Shown in pieces: positions 40,844 through 55,281 of a stretch of 64,000 nucleotides of DNA (the first letter of the stretch is position 1; each line of letters starts with the position of its first letter). Origin of the DNA: a virus (taxonomy: Duplodnaviria > Caudoviricetes); IMG/VR virus record IMGVR_UViG_3300021387_000025, positions 32,001 through 96,000 of that record; one strand, given 5' to 3'. The notes beneath the pieces were generated by a model that searched no databases, was not told the DNA's origin, and worked only from the letters and a program-made list of their open reading frames with translations. The translations under genes were made by a program, and so were the position numbers.

Positions 40844-41014
40844 GTACCAGGGGCGCCCGTTCGAACGGGCGTTCGATCCGAAAATCCCAAATACACCCGC
40901 CGGGTATTGTGCAATTTGCACAAAAAAGAAATTGAAAGTTTGTGCATTCTGCCTATTGCAATCCGGTGCTGATAGTGGTATACTTGACCCATCAAAAGAG
41001 AGGAGACCACCACA

Positions 41015-41473
41015 ATGACAAACCCCACCATTTTCGAACACATGATCGACGGATACAACACTCACGCGTACACGCACGAGTACATTTTTGGTTTTGAGTA
41101 CAAGGGCGTTGTCTATATGTCAAAAGCTACAAGCTCGGTTCTGCCCTTTGTCCTTTGCCTTGACCGCGCAAGCCGTGGCGCTGGATACGCGCTTCGCTTT
41201 AAGCCCAACAACGGGCAGAAGCTGGTCCTGATGGCTGGCGCTGAGGTCCTTTGCTCAAAGGAATATTTCGAATCGCTGGTTCAGTCCTCTATCTACAACG
41301 CGGGCGAGATCTTTGAGAAGCTGGTCACTGAAAAGTTCGGACAGACCTGGATCAAGGACAACGTACCGTTCACCCAGGACGGAGACCTCACGGTTGACGG
41401 GATCGCCTACCAGATCAAGTTCAACAAAGCTACCTTCATCAACGAAAAGCAGCTTGCAAGGCTCGAGGGCTGA
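41015..41473 (+). CDS. PD-(D/E)xK (QxK variant) nuclease-fold protein, paralog A1
   Basis: GEIFEKLV..DGDL..YQIK; near-collinear with 44301-44759. Confidence 0.7.
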   Translation: MTNPTIFEHMIDGYNTHAYTHEYIFGFEYKGVVYMSKATSSVLPFVLCLDRASRGAGYALRFKPNNGQKLVLMAGAEVLCSKEYFESLVQSSIYNAGEIFEKLVTEKFGQTWIKDNVPFTQDGDLTVDGIAYQIKFNKATFINEKQLARLEG

Positions 41474-41565
41474 GCCTTGCACCCGCTGCCCGGGCCGATA
41501 AAAAAGGCTTGACAAACACAAGCTGGTATGATATAATAAAGCTATAAAGAAAAGGAGATAAAACA

Positions 41566-41742
41566 ATGAAGTTTTTATTTGTCGGTTATATAGCTCTGAT
41601 TCTGGTGGTTTTCTTCTTCAGTATTATTCATCAGGATGATGTAAATAAGAATGGATCTCGTAAATTCAACTGGCGCTTTGTAATTGTCCTGATTATGTTC
41701 ATTGTTTCGCCAGTAGTTGCCAAGCTTTGCGGTCTGATGTGA
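41566..41742 (+). CDS. Small two-TM membrane protein, 58 aa
   Basis: Own promoter and AAGGAG RBS; MKFLFVGYIALILVVFFF..WRFVIVLIMFIV. Confidence 0.7.
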   Translation: MKFLFVGYIALILVVFFFSIIHQDDVNKNGSRKFNWRFVIVLIMFIVSPVVAKLCGLM

Positions 41743-41853
41743 TCGCAAAGTTGGCCGGGCGGCCGCTGCCGGAGAAAAAAAGATTAAAAAGCACTTGACA
41801 AACCGGAGAACATCTGTTATAATAGACTTATCAAAAGAGAGGAGAACACAACA

Positions 41854-42018
41854 ATGACAAAGGAAGAAATGCTTACACTGGTAATTAGAAGATTCGGATT
41901 TGAACATCAGTATACAATCGACTTTGCAGAGTCAATCGAATGGTTAGGACTGGAAGAGTCCAGAACGCTTCTCGAAGCGGTTCTGACACTCCCACTGGAA
42001 GAGGACGAAGAGGACTGA
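41854..42018 (+). CDS. Small acidic protein, 54 aa
   Basis: Own promoter, GAGGAG RBS, terminator hairpin over the stop codon. Confidence 0.7.
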   Translation: MTKEEMLTLVIRRFGFEHQYTIDFAESIEWLGLEESRTLLEAVLTLPLEEDEED

Positions 42019-42196
42019 AGTCCTCTTCTCTTTGGGCGCGGAGTTAGTCATGACTAACCACTGCCCGGGCGATGGCGGAGTTAGTCATGACTAACTACGC
42101 AGAGTCCCGCTGCCGGTATAAAAGATTAAAAAGGGACTTGACAAACGCGCGATAGTATGATATAATAAGACTATCAAAAGAAAGGAAGAATTAAAG

Positions 42197-42415
42197 ATGT
42201 ATAATGTAGATCTGGCTATGTGCAATGGTATGGATACAGTTATAACTCATGTAGAACATATTCCGTTCTATTCGAGATGGGCGGCGCGCAAATATTCGCG
42301 CGAAGTTATCAAATGCATTGATGTCTATCATATAACAATTATGGACATGGAAACTGGTGAAATCGTTTTGGAATTAAATAATGACGGTTCGATTGAATGG
42401 GACTCGGAGGGTTAA
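42197..42415 (+). CDS. Hypothetical protein, 72 aa
   Basis: Cassette promoter, RBS and hairpin. Confidence 0.75.
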   Translation: MYNVDLAMCNGMDTVITHVEHIPFYSRWAARKYSREVIKCIDVYHITIMDMETGEIVLELNNDGSIEWDSEG

Positions 42416-42542
42416 ACCCTCCGATTCTTTGCCCGGGCGTTGAGTTAGTCACGACTAATTCAAAACTTTTCCGAAAAAACTATTGACAAAATTCTATTCT
42501 TATGTTATACTAAAGTCAGAAAAAGAGAAAGGAATCCGAAAA

Positions 42543-42980
42543 ATGAGAATTTGTTTTGATATGGATGGAACGATCGCCGATCTTTACGGAGTTGAAGGAT
42601 GGTTGGAAAATCTCATTGAAGAAAATACAAGGCCTTACGAAGAAGCAAAAGTTTTACTAAATATGCAGGCACTTGCAAGAGTTCTGAATAATCTCCAGAA
42701 AAAGGGATATGAAATCGGAATTATCTCGTGGCTTTCCAAAAATGGTTCTGAAAAATATAACGAAAAAGTAAAACTTGCAAAAATCGAATGGTTGAAAAAT
42801 CACTTAAAAAGTGTTAGATTCGACTTTCTGGAAATTGTCAAATATGGAACAGATAAAAATCTGGTTTGTACTGGAAAATCTGATATTTTATTTGATGATG
42901 AAATCGGAAACCGTGAAAACTGGAAAGGCATTTCCTATAATGTAGAAAATATCATTGAAGTTTTAAGAAGATTGAAATAA
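42543..42980 (+). CDS. HAD-family 5'(3')-nucleotidase-like phosphatase, paralog B1
   Basis: FDMDGT, IISW, K..WL, LFDD; start moved to ATG 42543 after the RBS. Confidence 0.8.
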   Translation: MRICFDMDGTIADLYGVEGWLENLIEENTRPYEEAKVLLNMQALARVLNNLQKKGYEIGIISWLSKNGSEKYNEKVKLAKIEWLKNHLKSVRFDFLEIVKYGTDKNLVCTGKSDILFDDEIGNRENWKGISYNVENIIEVLRRLK

Positions 42981-43115
42981 TCCTCTTTTTTCTCGCGAAA
43001 ACGGCGCCCGGGCGCAATCGAACACACGTACGAACAAAATTTTTTTTAAAAATACTTGACAAACCGGAAAATGTATGCTATAATTAAACCATCAAAAGAA
43101 AGGAAGATAACAAAC

Positions 43116-43274
43116 ATGAAGACATGGGAAGAAATGAATAAAATGGAAAGACTCGCTGAAATTATGTTTCAAGAGGATGAAGAAAGGTATAATAATAATC
43201 AACCTTTGATGTATTACACTAAAGAAGATTTTGAAGCAGAAAAAAAAGAAAGAGAAAATGAAAAAAATACTTGA
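43116..43274 (+). CDS. Small protein, 52 aa
   Basis: Cassette promoter and RBS. Confidence 0.65.
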   Translation: MKTWEEMNKMERLAEIMFQEDEERYNNNQPLMYYTKEDFEAEKKERENEKNT

Positions 43275-43329
43275 CAAATTCCGGATTCTATGATATACTT
43301 ATACCATCAAAAGAAAGGAAGAAACGAAA

Positions 43330-43611
43330 ATGAGCGGATTTTATGAATTAAAATGTATGGATGGAATGGGATTTTATACTTATTATTATTTTTATAGTCC
43401 TCGTGCAATTCGCAACCCCAAGATGGCATTAAATCGTGGTTACGCTTCTGACGCCATGAGATTAGTGGTTGATGATAGAGAAGAAGACCCCGTTGCAATT
43501 AAATTCATGCACAATATTTTTGAATACATTTACAAAAAGTATTTCAAAAAGGCGGGGACTTTTAGATTGGGTTATCGTGTAGACTGGGAAAAAGAAAGTA
43601 AAAGAATCTAA
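43330..43611 (+). CDS. Hypothetical protein, 93 aa
   Basis: Cassette promoter and RBS. Confidence 0.7.
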   Translation: MSGFYELKCMDGMGFYTYYYFYSPRAIRNPKMALNRGYASDAMRLVVDDREEDPVAIKFMHNIFEYIYKKYFKKAGTFRLGYRVDWEKESKRI

Positions 43612-43766
43612 AAAAATTGGCAAAAATCGAAATATCTGTTACAATTTAAACATCGAAAAAGAGGACCAAAAATCCTCTTTTTTTCGCGCCCGGACGAAAA
43701 TTTTTACTTGACAAATTCTACTTTTTATGATATAATAAGTTTATCAAAAGAAAGGAATCTCCAAAA

Positions 43767-44018
43767 ATGAAGAAGTTTTTCGGTATTGAACACGGTTATA
43801 AATTCGAATGGAATGATCTTCGTTGTTTTGCAACGGTTATAAATGTCATCCTTATAATGGTTTTTGGACTTTCTATTTCATGGTTCGGTCTTGGAATTGC
43901 AATAGTTGGTCTTGTTAAAGATTTAACAAGTGATCGGCATATTAACGGAATTGTAATGCATTTATCAGGTATTGCATTAAATGTTTATTTCCTTTTTCTT
44001 TTGTACGGCGGAGTGTAA
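43767..44018 (+). CDS. Small membrane protein, 83 aa
   Basis: Hydrophobic segments; cassette signals. Confidence 0.7.
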   Translation: MKKFFGIEHGYKFEWNDLRCFATVINVILIMVFGLSISWFGLGIAIVGLVKDLTSDRHINGIVMHLSGIALNVYFLFLLYGGV

Positions 44019-44300
44019 AAACTCCGCTTTTTTCGCGCCGAAAACAAAAAAATTTTTTAAAAAGGTATTGACAAATCCCTTTTCTCATGATATAATAGTA
44101 TCATAGAAAAGGGAAGTGGAGTGGACACCGAGGACGCAAACATCCAACCAACAATCGAGTTAGTCATGACTAACTATTGCCCGGGCGCCAGTTAGTTGCG
44201 ACTAACCGCGCGAAAAAATTTTTAAAAAATTGAAAAAAGGGGTTGACAAATACCGGTTCATCTGCTATAATAGACTTATCAAAAGAAAGGAAACACCGAC

Positions 44301-44759
44301 ATGAATACCTCGATTTTCAACTACCTCATCGACAACTACAACAAACTCTCCTACACACACAACTACATTTTCGGTTTCGAATTCAATCATACAATCTATA
44401 TGGCACACGCTGACGCCGAAGTTCTCCCCTACGTGCTGACGCTGGACAAGGCAAGCCGTGGCGCTGGTTACAGCATCCGCTTCAAGCCCAACAAAAATCA
44501 GAAAATGGTTCTGATCACGAAAGCTGAGGTTCTCTGCTCCGCTGAATATTTCGAAAGTGAAGTAGCCGAAAGCAAGTACAACGCTGGTGAGATTTTCGAA
44601 AAGATGGTAACCGAAAGATTCGGTCAGACTTGGGAAAAAGACAATGTTCCCTTTACCGAAGACGGAGACCTCACAGTTGACGGAATCGCTTATCAGATCA
44701 AATTCAATAAAGCAACTTTCATCAATGAAAAGTCCCTCGCAAGGTTCCTCGCAATGTGA
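44301..44759 (+). CDS. PD-(D/E)xK (QxK variant) nuclease-fold protein, paralog A2
   Basis: Same motifs and length as 41015-41473. Confidence 0.7.
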   Translation: MNTSIFNYLIDNYNKLSYTHNYIFGFEFNHTIYMAHADAEVLPYVLTLDKASRGAGYSIRFKPNKNQKMVLITKAEVLCSAEYFESEVAESKYNAGEIFEKMVTERFGQTWEKDNVPFTEDGDLTVDGIAYQIKFNKATFINEKSLARFLAM

Positions 44760-44862
44760 ACCTTGCGACTTTTCTTTTGCCCGGGCGCGCCGAACAGAAG
44801 TTCGAGAAAAAATTTTTGAAAAAGCACTTGACATTTTCGACAAGGTATGCTATAATACATAA

Positions 44863-44937
44863 TGTCAGGAGGAGAGAAAGGTAAACCTCGGCAAGCCATA
44901 TAGGGAACGGGTTCAAATCCCGCGGAGTCGCTCTCCA
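44863..44937 (+). ncRNA. Candidate small tRNA-like structured RNA
   Basis: Own promoter, no ORF; GGAGAG/CTCTCC closing stem and CGGG-TTCAAAT-CCCG T-arm. Confidence 0.45.
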
Positions 44938-45007
44938 AACCACGAAACTTTTAAAAAGTTGTGAAAAACCTCTTGACAAATCAAATCAAATGTGCTATAA
45001 TAAAGGC

Positions 45008-45222
45008 ACAGTAAGGGAAGGAAAACCCAAACAAACCCCTCGATCAAGCCAGCGTTCAGCCCTCTGTGAAAACAGAGAAACCGCAACCGACAGGACGGAA
45101 GGCGCAAGGTGCCTATGTAAGACGGACAACGAGGTTAAAGAGCGGTTAGCAAACAACTCGCAAGGGTACGAACCCCTAACGCCGTGGGGTGCGTGAGTCT
45201 GAAGGAACTAAAATCCCTTTCA
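45008..45222 (+). ncRNA. Candidate about 210-nt structured ncRNA
   Basis: Own promoter, no RBS-led ORF, GC-rich, several nested helices including CTCTGT-GAAA-ACAGAG. Confidence 0.55.
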
Positions 45223-45442
45223 AAAACAAATGCGACTCTATGGCACCGCCATAGGTCGCGCCCGGGCCAAATTTTTTAAAATTATACTTGACAAATTAAA
45301 AAATCTATGCTATAATACATATAGAAAAAGAAAAGAAAAACAAAGGGCTTGCGGTAGTTGAATAAGATAGTTTGCAGAGACTTGCTCCTTTGAATTATTT
45401 GAAAGACTACTAACCCACCATTAAAAAGGAGGAAAACTTATA

Positions 45443-45721
45443 ATGATGATTAATCCCGAATATGCAAAACCTATTCTTAAACTTTCTAACTTGCTCAATG
45501 AGCGCAACATTCCCCACACAGTAAATGTGATTTGGGACGGTTTACAGATTCGCTTCCCTTGGAATGGTGGAGATATTATTTGCCATTCAGGTTCTTACTG
45601 GCATGAATATGGACATGTGGAATCAATGGGATGTCCTTGGGACAAGGACGATGTGACTTGTCTTCGTGTTGACGAGGCAGGCGAACTTGTTGCTGATTGG
45701 TGGGCAGAGGTTGGGGATTGA
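45443..45721 (+). CDS. Hypothetical protein, 92 aa
   Basis: AGGAGG RBS; about 120-nt leader after promoter 45288. Confidence 0.75.
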   Translation: MMINPEYAKPILKLSNLLNERNIPHTVNVIWDGLQIRFPWNGGDIICHSGSYWHEYGHVESMGCPWDKDDVTCLRVDEAGELVADWWAEVGD

Positions 45722-45822
45722 CCCAACCGTGCCCGGGCCGCCAAAAATTTTTGAAAACTACTTGACAAATCTACTTTTATATGGTATAATGTATTCAGAA
45801 AAAGAGAAAGGAACACTTAAAC

Positions 45823-46260
45823 ATGACAACTATTTTCTTTGATATGGACGGAACAATTGCTGATCTGTACGGCGTAGAAAATTGGTTAGAATATCTTCAG
45901 AATGAAGATGCTTTCCCTTATGTAAATGCAAAAGCACTCCTAAATTTACAAGCACTCGCGCGCAGACTCAATAATTTACAGAGAAAAGGATATAGAGTTG
46001 AGATTATTTCGTGGCTTTCTCGTACTTCTTCCGAAAATTATGATAGACTGGTTACAACTGCAAAAATTGAATGGTTAGAAACTCATTTACACTCGGTTCA
46101 TTTTAATAAAATTAATATCGTTCGTTATGGTACTAATAAAGACAACTTCCGCCATTCAGATTTTGATATTTTATTTGATGACGAAGAAAAGAACCGCGAA
46201 AACTGGGGTGGAATTTCATACAATGTTGATAATATTCTTGAGGTGTTGAGGAGGTTATAA
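45823..46260 (+). CDS. HAD-family 5'(3')-nucleotidase-like phosphatase, paralog B2
   Basis: FDMDGTIADLYGVE..LFDDE; collinear with 42543-42980. Confidence 0.8.
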   Translation: MTTIFFDMDGTIADLYGVENWLEYLQNEDAFPYVNAKALLNLQALARRLNNLQRKGYRVEIISWLSRTSSENYDRLVTTAKIEWLETHLHSVHFNKINIVRYGTNKDNFRHSDFDILFDDEEKNRENWGGISYNVDNILEVLRRL

Positions 46261-46394
46261 TGAGCAAAAAGAAAAAGAAAACTACGGACCGTGGGCCAAC
46301 TTTCGTTGGATTATCTCCTATTTATGAGAAAACAAAGAAAGAAAGAATTGAAAGTAAATATAGAAAGCATAAAGGGCGCCAACTCGATGAGTAG
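46260..46394 (+). CDS. Small basic protein, 44 aa, apparently ending at TAG
   Basis: GGAGG RBS and TAATG coupling; the TAG lies in the loop of the terminator hairpin. Confidence 0.55.
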   Translation: MSKKKKKTTDRGPTFVGLSPIYEKTKKERIESKYRKHKGRQLDE

Positions 46395-46521
46395 AGGGCG
46401 CCTTTTCTGTGGCCCGGGCGCCGAGTTAACATAGACTAACTAAAAATTTTTTGAAAAAATACTTGACTTTTTGAAAAAGATATGATATAATTGATTTATC
46501 AAAAGAAAGGAAACAAATCAA

Positions 46522-46677
46522 ATGTTCGGTGATCTTGTAAATCTCTATTGTTCCTATTGTGATCTTGCGGACTACTACTTCTGGGCTTCTCGTGATTGGG
46601 ATCGTAAAGAAAAATTCCAGGAGTATAAGAAACTGGCAAAGAATATCGAAGAAATTTTGAAAGGAATGTGTGAATAA
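46522..46677 (+). CDS. Small protein, 51 aa
   Basis: Cassette promoter and RBS. Confidence 0.65.
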   Translation: MFGDLVNLYCSYCDLADYYFWASRDWDRKEKFQEYKKLAKNIEEILKGMCE

Positions 46678-46678
46678 A

Positions 46679-46870
46679 ATGAATGAAGTTTGGTATAAGA
46701 TTGTAACTCCTCAGACAACCGTTGAAATTCAGGACTATGCAACCGCAAAGCGTTTGGAAAGAAACGGCGCGCAGGTTGAAAGAATTTATAAATATAAAAA
46801 TCTTTCGTGCATCACGGATGAAAAGAGAAGAGAAAAAATTCTCAGAAAGTACGGACTGTCGATGGTGTAA
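46679..46870 (+). CDS. Small protein, 63 aa
   Basis: AAGGA RBS; hairpin over the stop codon. Confidence 0.65.
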   Translation: MNEVWYKIVTPQTTVEIQDYATAKRLERNGAQVERIYKYKNLSCITDEKRREKILRKYGLSMV

Positions 46871-46958
46871 ACCATCGATGGCCCGGGCCAAAAATTTTGC
46901 TTGACATTTTCTAAAAAGTATGCTATAATAGATTTATCAAAGAAAAGGAGATTTTCAA

Positions 46959-47132
46959 ATGACTCACATCGAATTAGTTGAAAAGATTATTGAAGGTTTT
47001 CAGAAGCAATTTAAAGAATATCCAGTAGAAAGTGAAAACGAAGAAACCTTCCGTCAGGGCATGATTTTTGCTTACAAATACTTAATTGAAGTTTTAAAGA
47101 ACAATGGATATCCCTATATAGAAGAAGATTAA
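46959..47132 (+). CDS. Small protein, 57 aa
   Basis: Cassette promoter and AAGGAG RBS. Confidence 0.65.
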   Translation: MTHIELVEKIIEGFQKQFKEYPVESENEETFRQGMIFAYKYLIEVLKNNGYPYIEED

Positions 47133-47207
47133 AATTTTTCAAAAAGCACTTGACAAAATAAACTTTATAGTGTATAATAGTCTTATCAAAAGAAAGGAAA
47201 TATAAAA

Positions 47208-47339
47208 ATGTTTTACTTTTTAATGAGTCTTTTAAGTGAAAATCCCGCGGGTGGTCCACAGATGTTTGGAGCTTTGTGTGACGGTTTTTATTTTGGAATT
47301 TTGCTTTGTCAGATAGTCAAGGCAATTAGAAGGAAATGA
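47208..47339 (+). CDS. Small hydrophobic protein, 43 aa
   Basis: Cassette promoter and RBS. Confidence 0.6.
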   Translation: MFYFLMSLLSENPAGGPQMFGALCDGFYFGILLCQIVKAIRRK

Positions 47340-47447
47340 GCGAACACTTGTTCGCTCTTGCCCGGGCCGCCAATTTTTGAAAAAGTTCTTGACAAAATAA
47401 AAAAAGTATGCTATAATGAATCTATCAAAAGAAAGGAAATAATAAAA

Positions 47448-47645
47448 ATGGCAACATTAAGTTTGAAAACTGCTATGAACATGATGGATATTGTTAGTTA
47501 TACTCTTTGCCGCACTGTTTGTCAGGATGAGACTTTTAAGACTATGTCTCATGAAGAATTGACCGAATACATAACTAACACTACAGAAGAAATTTTCGTT
47601 GCTTTTTGTGATGAAGTAGGAATTGATGAAATAACAGAATGGTGA
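47448..47645 (+). CDS. Small acidic protein, 65 aa
   Basis: Cassette promoter and RBS; start moved to ATG 47448. Confidence 0.65.
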   Translation: MATLSLKTAMNMMDIVSYTLCRTVCQDETFKTMSHEELTEYITNTTEEIFVAFCDEVGIDEITEW

Positions 47646-48024
47646 TCCCTTCTTTCGTGCCCGGGCGCGGTTAGCATAGACTAACTTGAAAATTTTTTAA
47701 AAAGTGCTTGACATTTTCGGGTGTTTGTGATATACTATATATTGTCAAGGGGAGATAGAAAGCCACGGCAGACAGCGGTACCGCAAGGTATAAAAACAGT
47801 AAGAAAATTTTCAAAAACCCCTTGACAAACTCCACAAAATGTGGTATAATAAAGGTACAAAATCAAGAGGGCGTGAGAAAATGGAAGCGCTTAAAAAAAT
47901 AAAAAAAAGTTGAAAAACCTCTTGACAAACTCAAAAAAATGTGCTATAATAAACACATAAGAAATGGAGATGAACTCCAAAAAAACTTGAGGGTCGCAAC
48001 CTAATAGCGAGAAAGAGGTCTGAT

Positions 48025-48405
48025 ATGACGAATCGTGAATTTCTGAACACCATTATCAATGCAAACATCTCTGATGAGATCACCGCGCAGGCACAGGACA
48101 TGCTTGCAAAGCTGGACGCTCGCAACGCAAAGCGCGCCAGCACTCCGTCAAAGACGGCTGTAGCGAATGAGCCGATCAAGGCAAAGATCCTTGAGCTTCT
48201 CGGCAACGCGACTGAACTGATGACTGCTCCGCAGGTCGGTGAGGCAGTCGGCGTCAGCACTCAGAAGGCTTCCGCACTTCTCCGCCAGATGGTAGAGGTC
48301 GGCACTCTTACCTCGGAAGAGGTCAAGATTCCGAAGAAGGGCAAGATGAAGGGTTACACCCTCGCAGAGGGCGCGCAGTATCTCGATAACGAGATCGCGC
48401 AGTAA
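48025..48405 (+). CDS. Coiled-coil plus winged-HTH DNA-binding protein, paralog C1
   Basis: MTNREF..MTAPQVGEAVGVSTQKASALLRQMV..KGYTL. Confidence 0.75.
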   Translation: MTNREFLNTIINANISDEITAQAQDMLAKLDARNAKRASTPSKTAVANEPIKAKILELLGNATELMTAPQVGEAVGVSTQKASALLRQMVEVGTLTSEEVKIPKKGKMKGYTLAEGAQYLDNEIAQ

Positions 48406-48574
48406 CCCATAGTTAAAACCACAAGGGAGAGAGAAATCTCTCCCATTTTTTCGGTTTCGAGTTAGTCACGACTAACCGTGCCCGGGCCGCCATCCCGAAA
48501 TTTTTTAAAAAGTAGTTGACAAATTAAAAATTTTATGATATAATAAATCTATCAAAAGAAAGGAAGTACCCAAA

Positions 48575-48892
48575 ATGAGAAATTTTGATTGGTTTGATGA
48601 ACTTTATTGTGTTGTTAAAGAAGATGGAACTTTCGCAGGCGTTCCTTGTCAGTCGATTGAAGAAGCAATTGAACTTGCCGCGCAACATGATGGAAGTAAA
48701 ATCTTTGATATGAGACTTGATAATGAATCCCTTTGGGAATATAATGATTATGATCCATATGAAAATATTCGATCTTGGGAAAGAAAATGCGAACAAGATA
48801 TTGAATACATGATGCGGGAAAACGAGGATTATAATTGTGATGATGATACGGGTTATGATCCTTATATGGGTTGTTATACCGATGAGTGTTAA
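48575..48892 (+). CDS. Highly acidic protein, 105 aa
   Basis: Cassette signals; D/E/Y-rich. Confidence 0.7.
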   Translation: MRNFDWFDELYCVVKEDGTFAGVPCQSIEEAIELAAQHDGSKIFDMRLDNESLWEYNDYDPYENIRSWERKCEQDIEYMMRENEDYNCDDDTGYDPYMGCYTDEC

Positions 48893-49183
48893 CCATCGGT
48901 TTGCCCGGGCGCGAACACATGTTCGGTAAAAACTTTTTGAAAAAAGTACTTGACTTTTCGGCGAAAGTATGGTATTATATATATTGTCAAGGGGAGAGAT
49001 AAGCGAGTGAGCGCTCCTCGGTTCAAAAGTCCTGCCGAGTGGCAGATAACAAGTAGATGAAAAAATCTTGAGAAACCCCTTGACAAACTTCAAAAAGTAT
49101 GCTATAATAAGCATGTAAAACAAAAGGAGATGAACTCCAAAACTTAAGGGTCGCCACCATACAGCGAGAAAGGATTTTATACC

Positions 49184-49531
49184 ATGACAAACCGTGAATT
49201 CTACAATGCAATCGTTGACGCTAACCTCTCTGATGAGATCACCGAAAAGGCGCAGGCGCTTCTGGCGCAGATCGACGCGAGAAACGAGAAGCGTGCTTCC
49301 ACTCCGTCGAAGAAGTCGGTCGAGAACGCACCTCTCAAGGATGCAATCGTAGCCCTCTTCAATGACGAGGTTAAGGTTCTCACCGCCGCCGAGGTCGGTG
49401 TTCGTCTTGAGATCACGACTCAGAAAGCGTCTGCTCTTCTGCGTCAGATGGTCGAGGGCGGTGTCCTCACCGCCGAGGAAGTAAAGGTTCCCAAGAAAGG
49501 AAAGGTCAAGGCTTACTCCCTTGTGGGGTAA
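49184..49531 (+). CDS. Coiled-coil plus winged-HTH protein, paralog C2
   Basis: Collinear with 48025-48405. Confidence 0.75.
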   Translation: MTNREFYNAIVDANLSDEITEKAQALLAQIDARNEKRASTPSKKSVENAPLKDAIVALFNDEVKVLTAAEVGVRLEITTQKASALLRQMVEGGVLTAEEVKVPKKGKVKAYSLVG

Positions 49532-49745
49532 CCGCAACACCGAGGGGAGAATTTTCTCCCCTCTTTTTTAGCAAAAAGTTAGTCTTGACTAACTCGCCCG
49601 GGCCGCCATCACAATAAAATTTGAAAAAATTATAATTTTTTTGTATAATATATTTAGAAAAAATAAAAAAGTTTTGAAAAAAACACTTGACAAATCCCAT
49701 TTTATATGATATAATCTACTTGTAAAAAGAAAGGAGATAAACAAT

Positions 49746-50114
49746 ATGGCAACTTCCAAGAAATCCCTTAATGACAAACTTCGTTATCGTTATCTGAACC
49801 TTATTAGTGACTATCTTCATTCACAGGACGAAGAGGTTCTCGTAACTGGTTCGAATGAAATCTGTATCCCTTGTCTTGACGAAGAGGGAAACGATGAATT
49901 TATGGTTATCACTTTCAAGGTTCCCACTGGTTCGCGCGATGGTGACGCATACGACGGTTATGCACTCGCCGAAGAGTACGAAATGAAGTGCAAGGAAAAG
50001 ATGGAAAAGGCGAAAGAGTCCGCAAAAAAGAAAGCGGAAAAGATCGCGCGAGATAAGGCAAACCGCGAAGCACGCGCGAAAGCAAAAGCGGAACATCAGG
50101 CAAAGGAGGCGTAA
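49746..50114 (+). CDS. Hypothetical protein with K/A-rich helical tail, paralog D1
   Basis: TGSNEI..PC.D.EGNDEF..KVPTG..YDGY shared with 51693-52064. Confidence 0.75.
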   Translation: MATSKKSLNDKLRYRYLNLISDYLHSQDEEVLVTGSNEICIPCLDEEGNDEFMVITFKVPTGSRDGDAYDGYALAEEYEMKCKEKMEKAKESAKKKAEKIARDKANREARAKAKAEHQAKEA

Positions 50115-50215
50115 GCCTCCGTTTGTCTGGCCCGGGCAAAAATTTTAAAAAACTGCTTGACAAGTTTAAAAAAGTATGGTATAATAACTATAGAAAACAG
50201 AAAAGGAGAATAAAA

Positions 50216-50422
50216 ATGAGTGATAAAAATAACAACAGTGTAAAATCTGGTATCGGTTTCAGCGGTTTGCTTACAATTGCTTTTGTTGTATTAAAACTAT
50301 GTGGTGTAATCACTTGGTCTTGGTTGTGGGTACTTTCCCCGTTGTGGATTTCAACGGCGATTGTTCTACTGATTGTGATTATGATTTTGATTATTGTCGC
50401 TGTGAATTCAGAAAGTACTTGA
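50216..50422 (+). CDS. Small membrane protein, 68 aa
   Basis: GIGFSGLLTIAFVVLKLCGVITWSWLWVLSPLW, a motif common in phage membrane proteins. Confidence 0.75.
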   Translation: MSDKNNNSVKSGIGFSGLLTIAFVVLKLCGVITWSWLWVLSPLWISTAIVLLIVIMILIIVAVNSEST

Positions 50423-50474
50423 CAAATCAGACTTAATGTGCTATAATAAAACTATCAGAAGAAATGAAAATGAC

Positions 50475-50609
50475 ATGGACGAACACGATAAAAAAGAAAT
50501 AGAAAAACTTAAAAGTTTTAAAAAATGGTATCTTTGGTTTTTGTCAGCTTCAGAAGAAGAAAAAAAAGAATATTTAAGAAACAGATGGAAAGCAGAAGAA
50601 AGGAAATAA
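50475..50609 (+). CDS. Small charged protein, 44 aa
   Basis: Follows promoter 50419; weak RBS. Confidence 0.4.
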   Translation: MDEHDKKEIEKLKSFKKWYLWFLSASEEEKKEYLRNRWKAEERK

Positions 50610-50769
50610 AAATTATAATGATGAAAAAGAGGAGTAATCCTCTTTTTGCCCGGGCCGCGGTTAGTGGAGACTAACTAAAAAAATAAAAAATTTTTTTCAA
50701 AACCACTTGACAAATCGGTTCTTTTATGGTATAATCTCTATTGTAAGTTAAAGAAAGGAACACACTACC

Positions 50770-51411
50770 ATGAATCATCTGATTGTACTTGACACTGAAA
50801 CCACAAACTCCATCGAAGAACCCCTTGCATATGACATTGGTTGGGCCGTCGTAACCGAAGAGGGTAAAGTTCTCAAAACTGAAAGCTACGCTGTGGCTGA
50901 AATTTTCCTTGACAAGGAGCTGATGCAGGTAGCATATTTTGCGGAGAAGATCCCGCAATATTGGGAAGAGATCAAAAACGGTAACCGCAAGCTGGCGCGT
51001 CTGTCAACGATTTTCAAATCTCTTTACGCTGATACTCGCGCCTATGATGTGAAAGAAATCTATGCACACAACGCGCGTTTTGATGACCTCAGCCTCAAGC
51101 TTACTCAGCGCTTTATTAGCGGTTCGAAATATCGTTACTTCCTCCCCTATGGCGTGAAGATGTGCGACACCTTGAAAATGTCAAGAGAAGCCTTCGGCAA
51201 AGACCCTGAATATAAAGCCTTCTGTGATGAAAACAATTACAAGACGCCGAGAGGTCAGCGCAAAATGACCGCAGAAGTTCTATATAGGTTCATCAGTGGA
51301 CAGAATGACTTTGAAGAGGTTCACAAGGGGCTTGATGATGTATTGATCGAAAAAGAAATTTTAATCGAGTGCAGACGGCGCGGTGTGGTTGATGGGTCAC
51401 TCTTCGAGTGA
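50770..51411 (+). CDS. DEDDh-family 3'-5' exonuclease
   Basis: LDTETT, AHNARFD, H.GLDDV motifs. Confidence 0.85.
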   Translation: MNHLIVLDTETTNSIEEPLAYDIGWAVVTEEGKVLKTESYAVAEIFLDKELMQVAYFAEKIPQYWEEIKNGNRKLARLSTIFKSLYADTRAYDVKEIYAHNARFDDLSLKLTQRFISGSKYRYFLPYGVKMCDTLKMSREAFGKDPEYKAFCDENNYKTPRGQRKMTAEVLYRFISGQNDFEEVHKGLDDVLIEKEILIECRRRGVVDGSLFE

Positions 51412-51692
51412 CCCGAAAAACGGCGCCCGGGCGCCCATAAGAAAATCTTATAGAAAAAGTGCTTGACTTTTTCAAGATTCTGTGGTATTATATATATTGT
51501 CAAGAGGAGAGACGACCATCGCAAGAAATCTTGTCGGGAACCCTAACACGGCACGTCCTATGACCGCCGCAGAAGGTGAGGCGTAGGGAGAGAGGACTCA
51601 AAAAATTTTTTCAAAAACTTTTGAAAAACCCCTTGACAAACCTCTGAAAATGTGATATAATAGACCTATCAAAAGAAAGGAAGGTACATAAA

Positions 51693-52064
51693 ATGGCAGT
51701 ATCTCGTAAAACTCTTCGTGACAATCTCCGCACCGCTTATCTCGATCGTGTGATCGCACTCTTCACCGCTGACGGTGAGGAAATCCTGCGGACGGGTTCC
51801 AATGAAATCGCCCTCCCCTGCGTGGACGCTGAGGGCAATGATGAGTTCGTAGTCGTAACGCTCAAGGTGCCGACTGGCGAGCGTGGCGGAGATCCGTATG
51901 ACGGCTACGGCGAGGCCGAGGCCTACGCTATGAAGGTAGCAGAAAAGGCCGAGAAGGCCAAGGAAGCGGCGGCGAAGAAGGCCGCCAAGATTGCCAAGGA
52001 CGAGGCTGACCGCAAGGCAAAGGCCGAAGCCAAGGCGAGAGCCAAGACGGAAAAGGGAGAGTGA
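51693..52064 (+). CDS. Hypothetical protein, paralog D2
   Basis: Collinear with 49746-50114. Confidence 0.75.
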   Translation: MAVSRKTLRDNLRTAYLDRVIALFTADGEEILRTGSNEIALPCVDAEGNDEFVVVTLKVPTGERGGDPYDGYGEAEAYAMKVAEKAEKAKEAAAKKAAKIAKDEADRKAKAEAKARAKTEKGE

Positions 52065-52175
52065 AAACTCTCCTGCGTCTGAAAGGGGTTAATACCCCTT
52101 TCTTTTTCTTCTACAGTTAGTTGTGACTAACTTTGCCCGGGCATCGTCTACCCGGGCGCGCATCCCTAACCTTCC

Positions 52176-52204
52176 ATTATAACACAACTTTGAATTTTTG
52201 TCAA
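52176..52204 (-). promoter_or_regulatory. Leftward consensus promoter firing antisense into the array end
   Basis: TTGACA-N17-TATAAT on the minus strand, no ORF downstream. Confidence 0.7.
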
Positions 52205-52282
52205 GTCTTTTTTCAAAAAAAATTTTCCCTTCTATCTCCCAGCTCACAGCGTCATCCTTGCACACCCATTATCGACCGGGCC

Positions 52283-52401
52283 GTGTCAAATTTTCCCAGG
52301 TGTCAAATTTCCAGGCAGCTGCAAAGCTGCATCAGCTGAGCTGCATTTTCAAATTTTCAGGCAGCTGCAAATTTCAAAAATAAAAAATAGCTGCGGCTGC
52401 A
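52283..52401. repeat. Clustered (C)AGCTGC and TCAAATTT(T)CCAGG repeats
   Basis: About 7 AGCTG/GCTGC units and 3 TCAAATTT..CAGG units in about 120 bp. Confidence 0.7.
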
Positions 52402-52565
52402 ACTTGAAAAATTTTCAATTTTATTTTATAATAAAAGGGGAATAATAATATAAAAATTTAGAGTTTTTTTAAAATTATATCACAAATTTTGAGATTTGTC
52501 AAATTTTCAGCGCGCATTAAAAAAGAGGGAGCATTTCTGCTCCCTCAATTTCATTTATAAAATTT

Positions 52566-52931
52566 TTACTCTTCGGTTGCAAGGACGTAGCCGCGCTGCG
52601 TACCCTTTCCCTTAATCTTTACGTCGACCTTCACGATCTGGCCAGCTTCAACGAGCGGCTTCAGAAGAGACGGTACAGACTGAGGCTTCAGCTCAAGGCC
52701 AGCCTCGTCAATAAGCATCGTCGCCGTCTTCGGCTCATCAGTCACACAAGCGAAAATCGCCTGGCGCAGCGGCTCCTTCTCAGCTGCCTTTTCAGCTGCC
52801 TTCTCGGCAACCTTGGCGCGCCGCTTTTCATTGGTCGCATCCAGCTGCGCAACAGCATCGCGCGCAAACTCGATCATCTCATCAGTTACAGTTCCTTCAA
52901 TTACAGCATTGTAAAATTCACGATTCGTCAT
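52566..52931 (-). CDS. Coiled-coil plus winged-HTH protein, paralog C3
   Basis: MTNREFYNA..QSVPSLLKPLV..VKIKGKG..GY; terminator at 52525-52546. Confidence 0.75.
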   Translation of the reverse strand: MTNREFYNAVIEGTVTDEMIEFARDAVAQLDATNEKRRAKVAEKAAEKAAEKEPLRQAIFACVTDEPKTATMLIDEAGLELKPQSVPSLLKPLVEAGQIVKVDVKIKGKGTQRGYVLATEE

Positions 52932-54642: not shown

Positions 54643-55281
54643 TCATTCAAAATCTTTTACTTTCACCTTAACTACAACACGCTTACCCATTCGATTCCTA
54701 ATTTCAATAACAGGTTTACATACAAGTCCCTCCATTGGCGCCGTACCAATCGTAGACATTGGTTTTGATTTTACATAAGTGATTGCTTCATCTAAAGTAG
54801 AAACCATAATTTCTGGTACTACCTGAATTTTAAAGGCCCGCACAATATCTTCAAGCGATTCGCGCCGAAGCCAAAGATCCTTTTTAGGCATATAAACATC
54901 AAACAGAATGAAATCTACGCCATCTGACTTATAAAGTCCACCTTTTTGAATTTTCGCGCCGTAACCTTCTCCAAAAAGAATTACTTCTTCTTCTCCAAAA
55001 AGCTGTTCAAATAATTCTTCATTTGCTTCGCCGCCAAACAATTCATTTAATCTATTCACCAAAATAGAAGGAATCTGCGCCCGCTCTGTACGTCCCTGAA
55101 ATGAAACTCTATGTCCGTCCCAGACAATACCAGTATTTGTTCCATCAATCTTTTCAGTACAAGACCATTTACAGTCTTTGAGATATTCAACTAAAGGATC
55201 ACGATATACACCCTCTAACAATTTCTTACTTCCATTCATATCTCGAGCAAAAGGCGTGTCGATTTTTGTATATTCAACCAT
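54643..55281 (-). CDS. RNA ligase (Rnl2-like nucleotidyltransferase domain)
   Basis: Motif I TEKIDGTN, FGEGYG, FILFDV, MEGLVCKP, VKVK. Confidence 0.8.
   Translation of the reverse strand: MVEYTKIDTPFARDMNGSKKLLEGVYRDPLVEYLKDCKWSCTEKIDGTNTGIVWDGHRVSFQGRTERAQIPSILVNRLNELFGGEANEELFEQLFGEEEVILFGEGYGAKIQKGGLYKSDGVDFILFDVYMPKKDLWLRRESLEDIVRAFKIQVVPEIMVSTLDEAITYVKSKPMSTIGTAPMEGLVCKPVIEIRNRMGKRVVVKVKVKDFE

Follow-up and report, generated by a model that had tools for sequence, protein, structure and literature searches.

An array of promoter–gene–terminator cassettes with a palindromic box at its junctions in an uncultured gut phage

The DNA considered here (the window) is a stretch of 64,000 nucleotides, bases 32001–96000 of the 119,955-bp phage record IMGVR_UViG_3300021387_000025, the two ends of which overlap. 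Between positions 40854 and 52157 of the window, on the plus strand, lies an array of about 31 co-oriented promoter units, with small genes or none, and the palindromic octamer GCCCGGGC (hereafter the box) recurs between the units. An original prediction, made from the letters alone, had described the array as a set of expression cassettes joined at this octamer, and had likened it to an integron. We present here an analysis of the array, of its counterparts in related phages, and of the ways in which the box may work.

The array and its junction palindrome

As had been claimed, there are 19 exact copies of the box in the window, all of them intergenic and within 41488–52142, where shuffled sequences give 0.13; they usually lie 9–25 nt past a stop codon. 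One-mismatch variants occupy three further sites (GGCCGGGC, GCCCGGAC and ACCCGGGC; Table 1), and there is also one GACCGGGC within the array. No exact copy had been seen elsewhere in the window, and the whole record likewise has none beyond the 19. The rest of the anatomy is likewise borne out by a reading of the sequence and by a consensus scan. There are 23 perfect plus-strand promoters of the form TTGACA-17-TATAAT, almost all of which have the TG extension, besides about eight that are near-perfect, each with an A/T tract of the upstream (UP)-element type before it; the leader ATCAAAAGA[AG]AGGA is present in 12 copies and is restricted to the array; the cassettes contain small genes or no open reading frame (ORF); and hairpins lie over the stop codons. 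The scan found 61 promoter-like sites (25.5 in shuffles) and 35 terminator-like sites (10.7 in shuffles).

In one respect the original description has to be altered. A box had been assigned to each of some 30 units, and by the same reading and scan a box or one-mismatch variant is present at 20 of the 21 junctions that have a terminator hairpin but at none of the 10 that lack one (Fisher P about 2.5e-7, computed by hand). Because the box thus goes with terminators rather than with promoters, the repeating unit is the stretch from box to box, of which there are about 20, each with one to three promoters; the paralogous pairs within the array (families A, B, C and D) correspond to such units. 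No box in the window overlaps a promoter, and the surroundings of the box are AT-rich throughout.

The same box is found in at least 20 related gut phage contigs, with 8–51 copies in each, and in every record for which all the copies were listed they are confined to a single cluster. Among complete genomes, there are 18 in G001 (181 kb), 15 in G006 (128 kb), 51 within 38 kb of G010 (240 kb) and 11 in G015 (116 kb); several partial records of various sizes have 8–10 each, and 12 additional metagenome loci have 3–15 each. Over 144 junction copies, the base before the octamer is T or C in 88% (A in 3%) and the base after it is G or A in 80% (T in 3%), a symmetric preference by which the site becomes a 10-bp palindrome, YGCCCGGGCR. 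Within their arrays, five complete genomes together have 114 exact and 20 one-mismatch copies, although base composition predicts that one-mismatch copies should be 32 times commoner, so it is the exact sequence of the box that is under selection. Of 108 junctions, 105 have a hairpin within the 50 nt that precede the box (mean free energy −15 kcal/mol, vs −7.5 when shuffled), and in about 97 of them the hairpin ends 0–6 nt from the box. In G010, G001 and G006 the box is found also within promoter spacers, 1, 3 or 4 nt past the −35 element and some 30 nt from the terminator.

Other related lineages put other palindromes into the junction slot: GCCGGC (in junctions and in spacers), GGCCGGCC, CCGGCCCG or GCGCCGGCGC. 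In G011 the slot is filled by ATTTAGGTGT-N3-ACACCTAAAT, which has the classic 9-3-9 form of an operator, and in G005 there is a GGGG...CCCC stem over the −35 element. A CCGG core is common to several of these motifs of different lineages (GCCCGGGC, GCCGGC, GGCCGGCC and GCGCCGGCGC).

Gain, loss and exchange of cassettes at the box

The nearest relative of the phage of this window (W) is G006, with about 75% nucleotide identity in the flanks of the array. The order of the array and the number of copies differ between the two, and a G006 cassette bounded by GCCCGGGC and GCCCGGAC is absent from W. Two close pairs, L183/L184 (95% identical) and L253/L254 (88–90% identical), gave finer resolution. 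L184 has a cassette with a free-standing GIY-YIG homing endonuclease gene between GCCCGGGC and ACCCGGGC (L184:9160–9896), where L183 has a small ORF-less unit instead; in the same pair, the 3′ end of a replaced gene stops at the box. L253 has cassettes of 744 and 730 nt, each between two boxes, neither of which is present in L254, where a single box variant occupies each site, and a comparison of the same two phages shows one terminator joined through the box to unlike promoter modules. Across both close pairs, 8 of the 23 ends of homology blocks fall no more than 2 nt from a box, where 3.8% would be expected (P about 1e-6, a value to which the two ends of one event contribute without being independent). 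The proteins encoded by the cassettes are 50–80% identical between phages whose core proteins are only 30–40% identical. In the PeSL scheme discussed below, mini-circles arise by exchange between adjacent motifs; the assembled contigs from metagenomes contain many alternative joints of the array with short sides in generic promoter or leader sequence, and these were left out of the evidence.

The box, then, marks the boundaries of cassettes and the points at which they are exchanged; array and box alike are genuine and conserved, and are subject to selection. The junctions had been proposed as sites of cassette gain, loss and reordering, and this has stood up: between relatives the content and order of the cassettes differ, breakpoints in the two close pairs cluster at the box, and the octamer is not spread through the genome, in each case the opposite of an outcome that the original prediction had listed as telling against itself.

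How might such exchange come about? Neither tyrosine (PF00589) nor serine (PF00239) recombinases had any match in the complete genome when stop codons were read through, and the positive controls worked; the absence of a visible integrase, first remarked on for the window, thus extends beyond it. From this we infer that no integrase is involved, and that exchange proceeds by short-homology recombination or with the help of a putative box-specific protein. Within every array the cassettes strictly share one orientation, and none bounded by this palindrome turned up inverted when such cases were looked for; both facts agree more readily with exchange guided by homology than with cassettes being freely cut and rejoined.

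How the box may be read

Our preferred explanation, to which we would give a probability of roughly 0.6 as a whole, is that these are terminator–promoter cassettes of the type known as promoter/stem-loop (PeSL) elements in T4-type phages, with a palindromic box as the cassette boundary, in a hyperplastic early-gene region of a TAG-recoded phage of about 120 kb that infects Firmicutes of the ruminant gut. The cassettes would be transcribed by the sigma-A RNA polymerase of the host, and YGCCCGGGCR would sit in the untranscribed gap of each terminated junction, so that recombination between any two boxes could delete, duplicate or swap a whole expression unit and leave the unit intact. Loss of a cassette between two exact direct repeats of 8–10 bp should need no special enzyme, and gain could take the PeSL route.

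Selection for evolvability alone would be a weak reason for such exact conservation. The palindromic core, the symmetric flanks, the copies in promoter spacers and the position of boxes downstream of an antisense promoter at the array boundary suggest that the box is recognised by a dimeric protein whenever the phage infects a cell. The promoter in question is a perfect leftward one at the right edge, with a predicted start near 52170, from which transcription would run antisense into the array through both right-end boxes; its layout is conserved in G006, L183/L184 and G010, and the predicted antisense transcript crosses one or two boxes. The exactness of the box would then be maintained by the putative dimeric reader, most likely a regulator of early transcription or an insulator. 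The original prediction had offered a crossover site or a protein-binding site; symmetry and the spacer copies fit binding, but the binding protein itself was not found.

The candidates can be dealt with briefly. A UvrD-like helicase was the sole protein to match the pattern of box-positive genomes (the five complete genomes with boxes all have it and the three without boxes do not, a small sample). Family C, which an iterated profile search found in all eight genomes compared, has a predicted winged-helix structure (pLDDT, the predicted local distance difference test, 82) with SmtB/MarR-like neighbours, and the modelled fold would suit the 16-bp GTTAG palindromes described below better than a site of 8–10 bp. 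Family A has a nuclease-like motif (invariant E100, D123 and Q132-x-K134), and falls into two clades that follow the class of junction motif; three complete genomes without GC junction palindromes have no member of it, but neither has G010 with its 51 boxes. Its very confident structural model (pLDDT 95; predicted template-modelling score, pTM, 0.88) has no neighbour among solved structures (Foldseek, VIA-align; best Z 3.0), and an atlas lead that placed it in a restriction-enzyme cluster scored 0.88, under the level to be trusted. Homologues of families A or C were not found in cultured phages, nor was family A in bacterial genomes. The octamer is also the recognition site of SrfI; among the proteins scanned, a partial annotation of the genome, no cognate endonuclease or methyltransferase was recognised.

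Several observations weigh against our explanation. No binding or cutting protein for the box was identified by homology, phylogenetic profiling or fold searches. At 70–80% identity, block ends near boxes are only about twofold enriched, and some exchange boundaries fall in promoters, in leaders or inside genes; a breakpoint at the box can also arise simply because the box is the first sequence common to all junctions. The two empty sites of L254 (L254:8165 and L254:10258) carry the same variant, GCCCGGCC followed by GC, which simple deletion between exact boxes does not predict. Finally, the helical phasing between box and −35 element appeared clear in a first set of junctions (R 0.36, P about 1e-6, or about 0.01 once similar junctions were removed; R 0.16 for a control with the hairpin end) and had the same phase in the G004 lineage, but an independent set of 79 junctions gave R about 0.23 at 9.5–10 bp and nothing at 10.5 bp; we regard the phasing as suggestive, replicated weakly, and do not rely on it.

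Alternatively, the box could be purely an operator: a repressor, of the phage or of the host, would act there to silence or insulate the consensus early promoters, and breakpoints would be found at the box only because it is the first common sequence. We consider this unlikely. The palindromic core and flanks, the fixed offsets of the relatives' spacer copies, the two boxes that closely follow the start site of the antisense boundary promoter, the use of other palindromes (including the 9-3-9 form) in the same slot, and the weak periodicity of about 10 bp would all be in keeping with it, and the p4 protein of phi29, said in the account of Monsalve 1996 given in PMC11806353 to repress a strong promoter from an upstream site via the alpha subunit, offers a precedent. 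Against it, box and −35 lie anywhere from 12 to 70 nt or more apart, no copy in the window overlaps a promoter, the box tracks terminators and is missing from 10 promoters, a palindrome of 8–10 bp is too short for the usual helix-turn-helix dimer, and the phasing did not clearly replicate.

That the box serves a dedicated site-specific exchange, a box-specific nuclease or unconventional recombinase cutting the palindrome so that cassettes are excised and rejoined, appears improbable to us. Family A, or GIY-YIG or PD-(D/E)XK-like nucleases of the phage together with a phage ligase, might be the agents, and in one version, which we rate as equally improbable, a small dimeric box-specific protein, perhaps family A, would cut or pair palindromes with a CCGG core as a recombinase-free exchange machine, moving whole promoter–gene–terminator units within and between co-infecting phages, each lineage with its own box. 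Insertions and deletions whose ends coincide with boxes to the nucleotide, between promoter modules that differ, would be accounted for in this way, as would the CCGG core shared by the junction motifs of different lineages and the distribution and invariant residues of family A; but G010 has no family A gene, the family lacks a structural neighbour and a trustworthy restriction-enzyme lead, the genome has no tyrosine or serine recombinase, and no inversion was found at the box, whereas cutting at a palindrome ought to permit inversions. Very improbable indeed, in our view, is a DNA element that acts without a protein, either as a GC clamp past the U-tract of the terminator that raises termination, or as a structural break beside the AT-rich UP element. 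Downstream duplex sequence does affect intrinsic termination, d(GCCCGGGC) crystallises as A-form DNA, and the box is always in AT-rich surroundings, in most junctions directly after the hairpin; but a clamp would accept any GC-rich octamer, whereas the exact sequence is found in 114 of 134 copies and distant lineages have kept one octamer, and the spacer copies lie about 30 nt from the terminator.

The phage, its other features and known analogues

Which organism carries the array? The minus-strand late genes are open only if TAG is read through as an amino acid, and one of the 28 tRNA genes of the genome has the anticodon CTA (loci: window 12393–40824 and L246:3240–3327; ARAGORN found no tRNA gene in the window). 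The array itself is independent of recoding, since G015, which appears to use the standard code, also has one. The large terminase is 34–42% identical to those of large phages of Geobacillus, Enterococcus, Bacillus and Lactococcus, a kinship that agrees with the sigma-A promoters and with the Firmicutes-type LexA boxes. Contigs with near-identical pieces of the array were present in bovine and goat gut runs from separate studies, and there was no DNA match among cultured phages.

There are two further kinds of palindrome (Table 1). Ten of the form GTTAG-N6-CTAAC lie beside boxes, and the genome has none outside the array region. The only four CGAAC-N4-GTTCG (LexA-type) boxes of the genome are inside the array or at its edge, and the relatives G001 and G003 place several at the corresponding position.

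The cassettes had been proposed to contain early anti-host genes. Most products of the array belong to no known family, the exceptions being a deoxyribonucleotidase, winged-helix proteins and a DEDD-type exonuclease. With the enzyme of the distant phage G001 the second deoxyribonucleotidase copy shares 71% identity, against 30–40% for the core proteins of the two phages. The ORF-less cassettes have a common 5′ handle, TGTCA(A/G)G(A/G)GGAGA, like an mRNA leader plus Shine–Dalgarno sequence; in L183 and L184 they are swapped after this handle, with boundaries away from the box, and their bodies are unrelated in these 95%-identical phages (L183:7780–7870 vs L184:7030–7215). Rfam searches by gathering threshold and by E-value gave no family for them, and they fold no better than shuffles.

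Both of the in-array family C genes follow a conserved leader of about 70 nt, GGAGATGAACTCC ... AGGGTCGC ... GCGAGAAAGG (window 47950–48024 and 49108–49183), which could be an autoregulatory element. To the right of the array, the region between the two leftward promoters (window 52230–52470) is non-coding and contains the iteron-like repeats GTGTCAAATTT and GGCAGCTGCAAA; it could be a replication origin or a regulatory region. Also just right of the array (window 54643–55281, minus strand) is a gene for a protein of the RNA ligase family (PF09414, E 1e-18), which, together with the large tRNA set, hints at tRNA repair.

Table 1. Features of the array and its surroundings (window coordinates unless another record is named)
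Feature	Position	Strand	Remarks
Box 1, GCCCGGGC	41488–41495		after terminator of family A copy 1
Box 2	42063–42070		GTTAGTCATGACTAAC on either side
Box 3	42431–42438		
Box 4	43006–43013		
Box 5	44179–44186		between two GTTAG boxes; junction paralogous to that of box 2
Box 6	44779–44786		followed by LexA-type box at 44791
Box 7	45260–45267		directly 3′ of terminal hairpin of ORF-less transcript of about 250 nt
Box 8	45731–45738		exact start of homology with G006
Box 9	46412–46419		
Box 10	46881–46888		shortest junction, 12 nt to −35
Box 11	47360–47367		one whole cassette absent relative to G006
Box 12	47659–47666		synteny with G006 breaks across box
Box 13	48480–48487		
Box 14	48903–48910		followed by LexA-type box at 48912
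Box 15	49596–49603		
Box 16	50130–50137		
Box 17	50648–50655		
Box 18	51425–51432		core of 14-bp palindrome GGCGCCCGGGCGCC
Box 19	52135–52142		right end of array; end structure kept in G006, L183/L184 and G010
Variant GGCCGGGC	41754–41761		one mismatch; at junction
Variant GCCCGGAC	43688–43695		one mismatch; at junction
Variant ACCCGGGC	52150–52157		one mismatch; second site at right end of array
GTTAG-N6-CTAAC palindromes (ten)	42043–52131		starts 42043, 42080, 44159, 44191, 46425, 47670, 48461, 49578, 50660, 52116
CGAAC-N4-GTTCG, Firmicutes LexA-type boxes (four)	40862–48925		starts 40862, 44791, 47341, 48912
Family A gene, copy 1	41015–41473	+	152 aa; no known family
Family A gene, copy 2	44301–44759	+	
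Deoxyribonucleotidase, copy 1	42543–42980	+	NT5C/HAD type
Deoxyribonucleotidase, copy 2	45823–46260	+	
Family C, copy 1	48025–48405	+	winged-helix protein
Family C, copy 2	49184–49531	+	winged-helix protein
Family C, copy 3	52566–52931	−	winged-helix protein; just past right edge; position kept in G006 and L183/L184
Family D gene, copy 1	49746–50114	+	122 aa; lysine/alanine-rich tail; no family
Family D gene, copy 2	51693–52064	+	
DEDD-type exonuclease-like protein	50770–51411	+	phrog_20187; weak match to DNA polymerase exonuclease subunit
ORF-less cassette	44863–44945	+	5′ handle TGTCAGGAGGAGA; T-arm-like GGGTTCAAATCCC inside
ORF-less cassette	47743–47808	+	handle TGTCAAGGGGAGA
ORF-less cassette	48985–49062	+	handle TGTCAAGGGGAGA
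ORF-less cassette	51498–51602	+	handle TGTCAAGAGGAGA
Perfect leftward promoter	52176–52204	−	right edge of array
Second perfect leftward promoter	52474–52502	−	
UvrD-like helicase, 336 aa	G000:C1:6969–7979		outside window; adjoins membrane-anchored GIY-YIG protein

The closest parallel is with the PeSLs of T4-type phages (Arbiol 2010, PMC2839356; Comeau 2014, PMC4122927). In both systems there are consensus host promoters with an AT-rich upstream part, a GC-rich element upstream of the promoter or between −35 and −10, a location among small genes of unknown function in hyperplastic regions, and insertions, deletions or replacements between close phages that end at the motifs; the stem arrangement of G005 and the variable position of the GC element are as Arbiol et al. 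describe for T4-type PeSLs (PMC2839356). The two differ in phage group and in host phylum, the present phage being one of Firmicutes. Here, moreover, a hairpin of its own, over the stop codon and apart from the GC box, serves as terminator; the element is an invariant perfect palindrome of 8–10 bp, unable to form a stem-loop alone; and insertions and deletions end on an 8-bp core, where those at PeSLs span 50–70 bp of homology.

The comparison with integrons holds for the tandem arrangement of small gene cassettes and for their gain and loss at a repeated boundary site, and goes no further. There is no integrase, the site is a short perfect palindrome and not an imperfect attC of 57–141 nt, and each cassette has its own promoter and terminator in place of the single Pc promoter. 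With recombinase, attC-like site and promoterless cassettes all absent, the array is not an integron, and the integron-like platform originally envisaged survives as a description of the pattern but not of the mechanism.

In the host-takeover module of SPO1 and the pre-early region of T5, dense strong early promoters of host type drive many small genes, and the array resembles them in its battery of early promoters and its many small genes; we know of no invariant junction palindrome in those regions, nor of documented cassette exchange at one. The REPs and BIMEs (repetitive extragenic palindromes and bacterial interspersed mosaic elements) of enterobacteria are also GC-rich palindromes just past stop codons, between transcription units, but REPs are imperfect hairpins of 35–40 nt spread over a whole bacterial genome, in contrast to an exact site of 8–10 bp in one region of a phage.

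Shuffling of the PeSL kind, so far described in T4-type phages of Gram-negative hosts, is thus indicated for a large clade of gut phages that is itself uncultured and whose closest relatives in culture are phages of Firmicutes. With a boundary mark so short, exact and easy to search for, gains and losses of cassettes can be counted in metagenomes. In each phage the box sets apart a pool of about 20 early genes that bring their own means of expression and are likely to act in host takeover or counter-defence, and it offers a defined bait with which to look for its putative reader.

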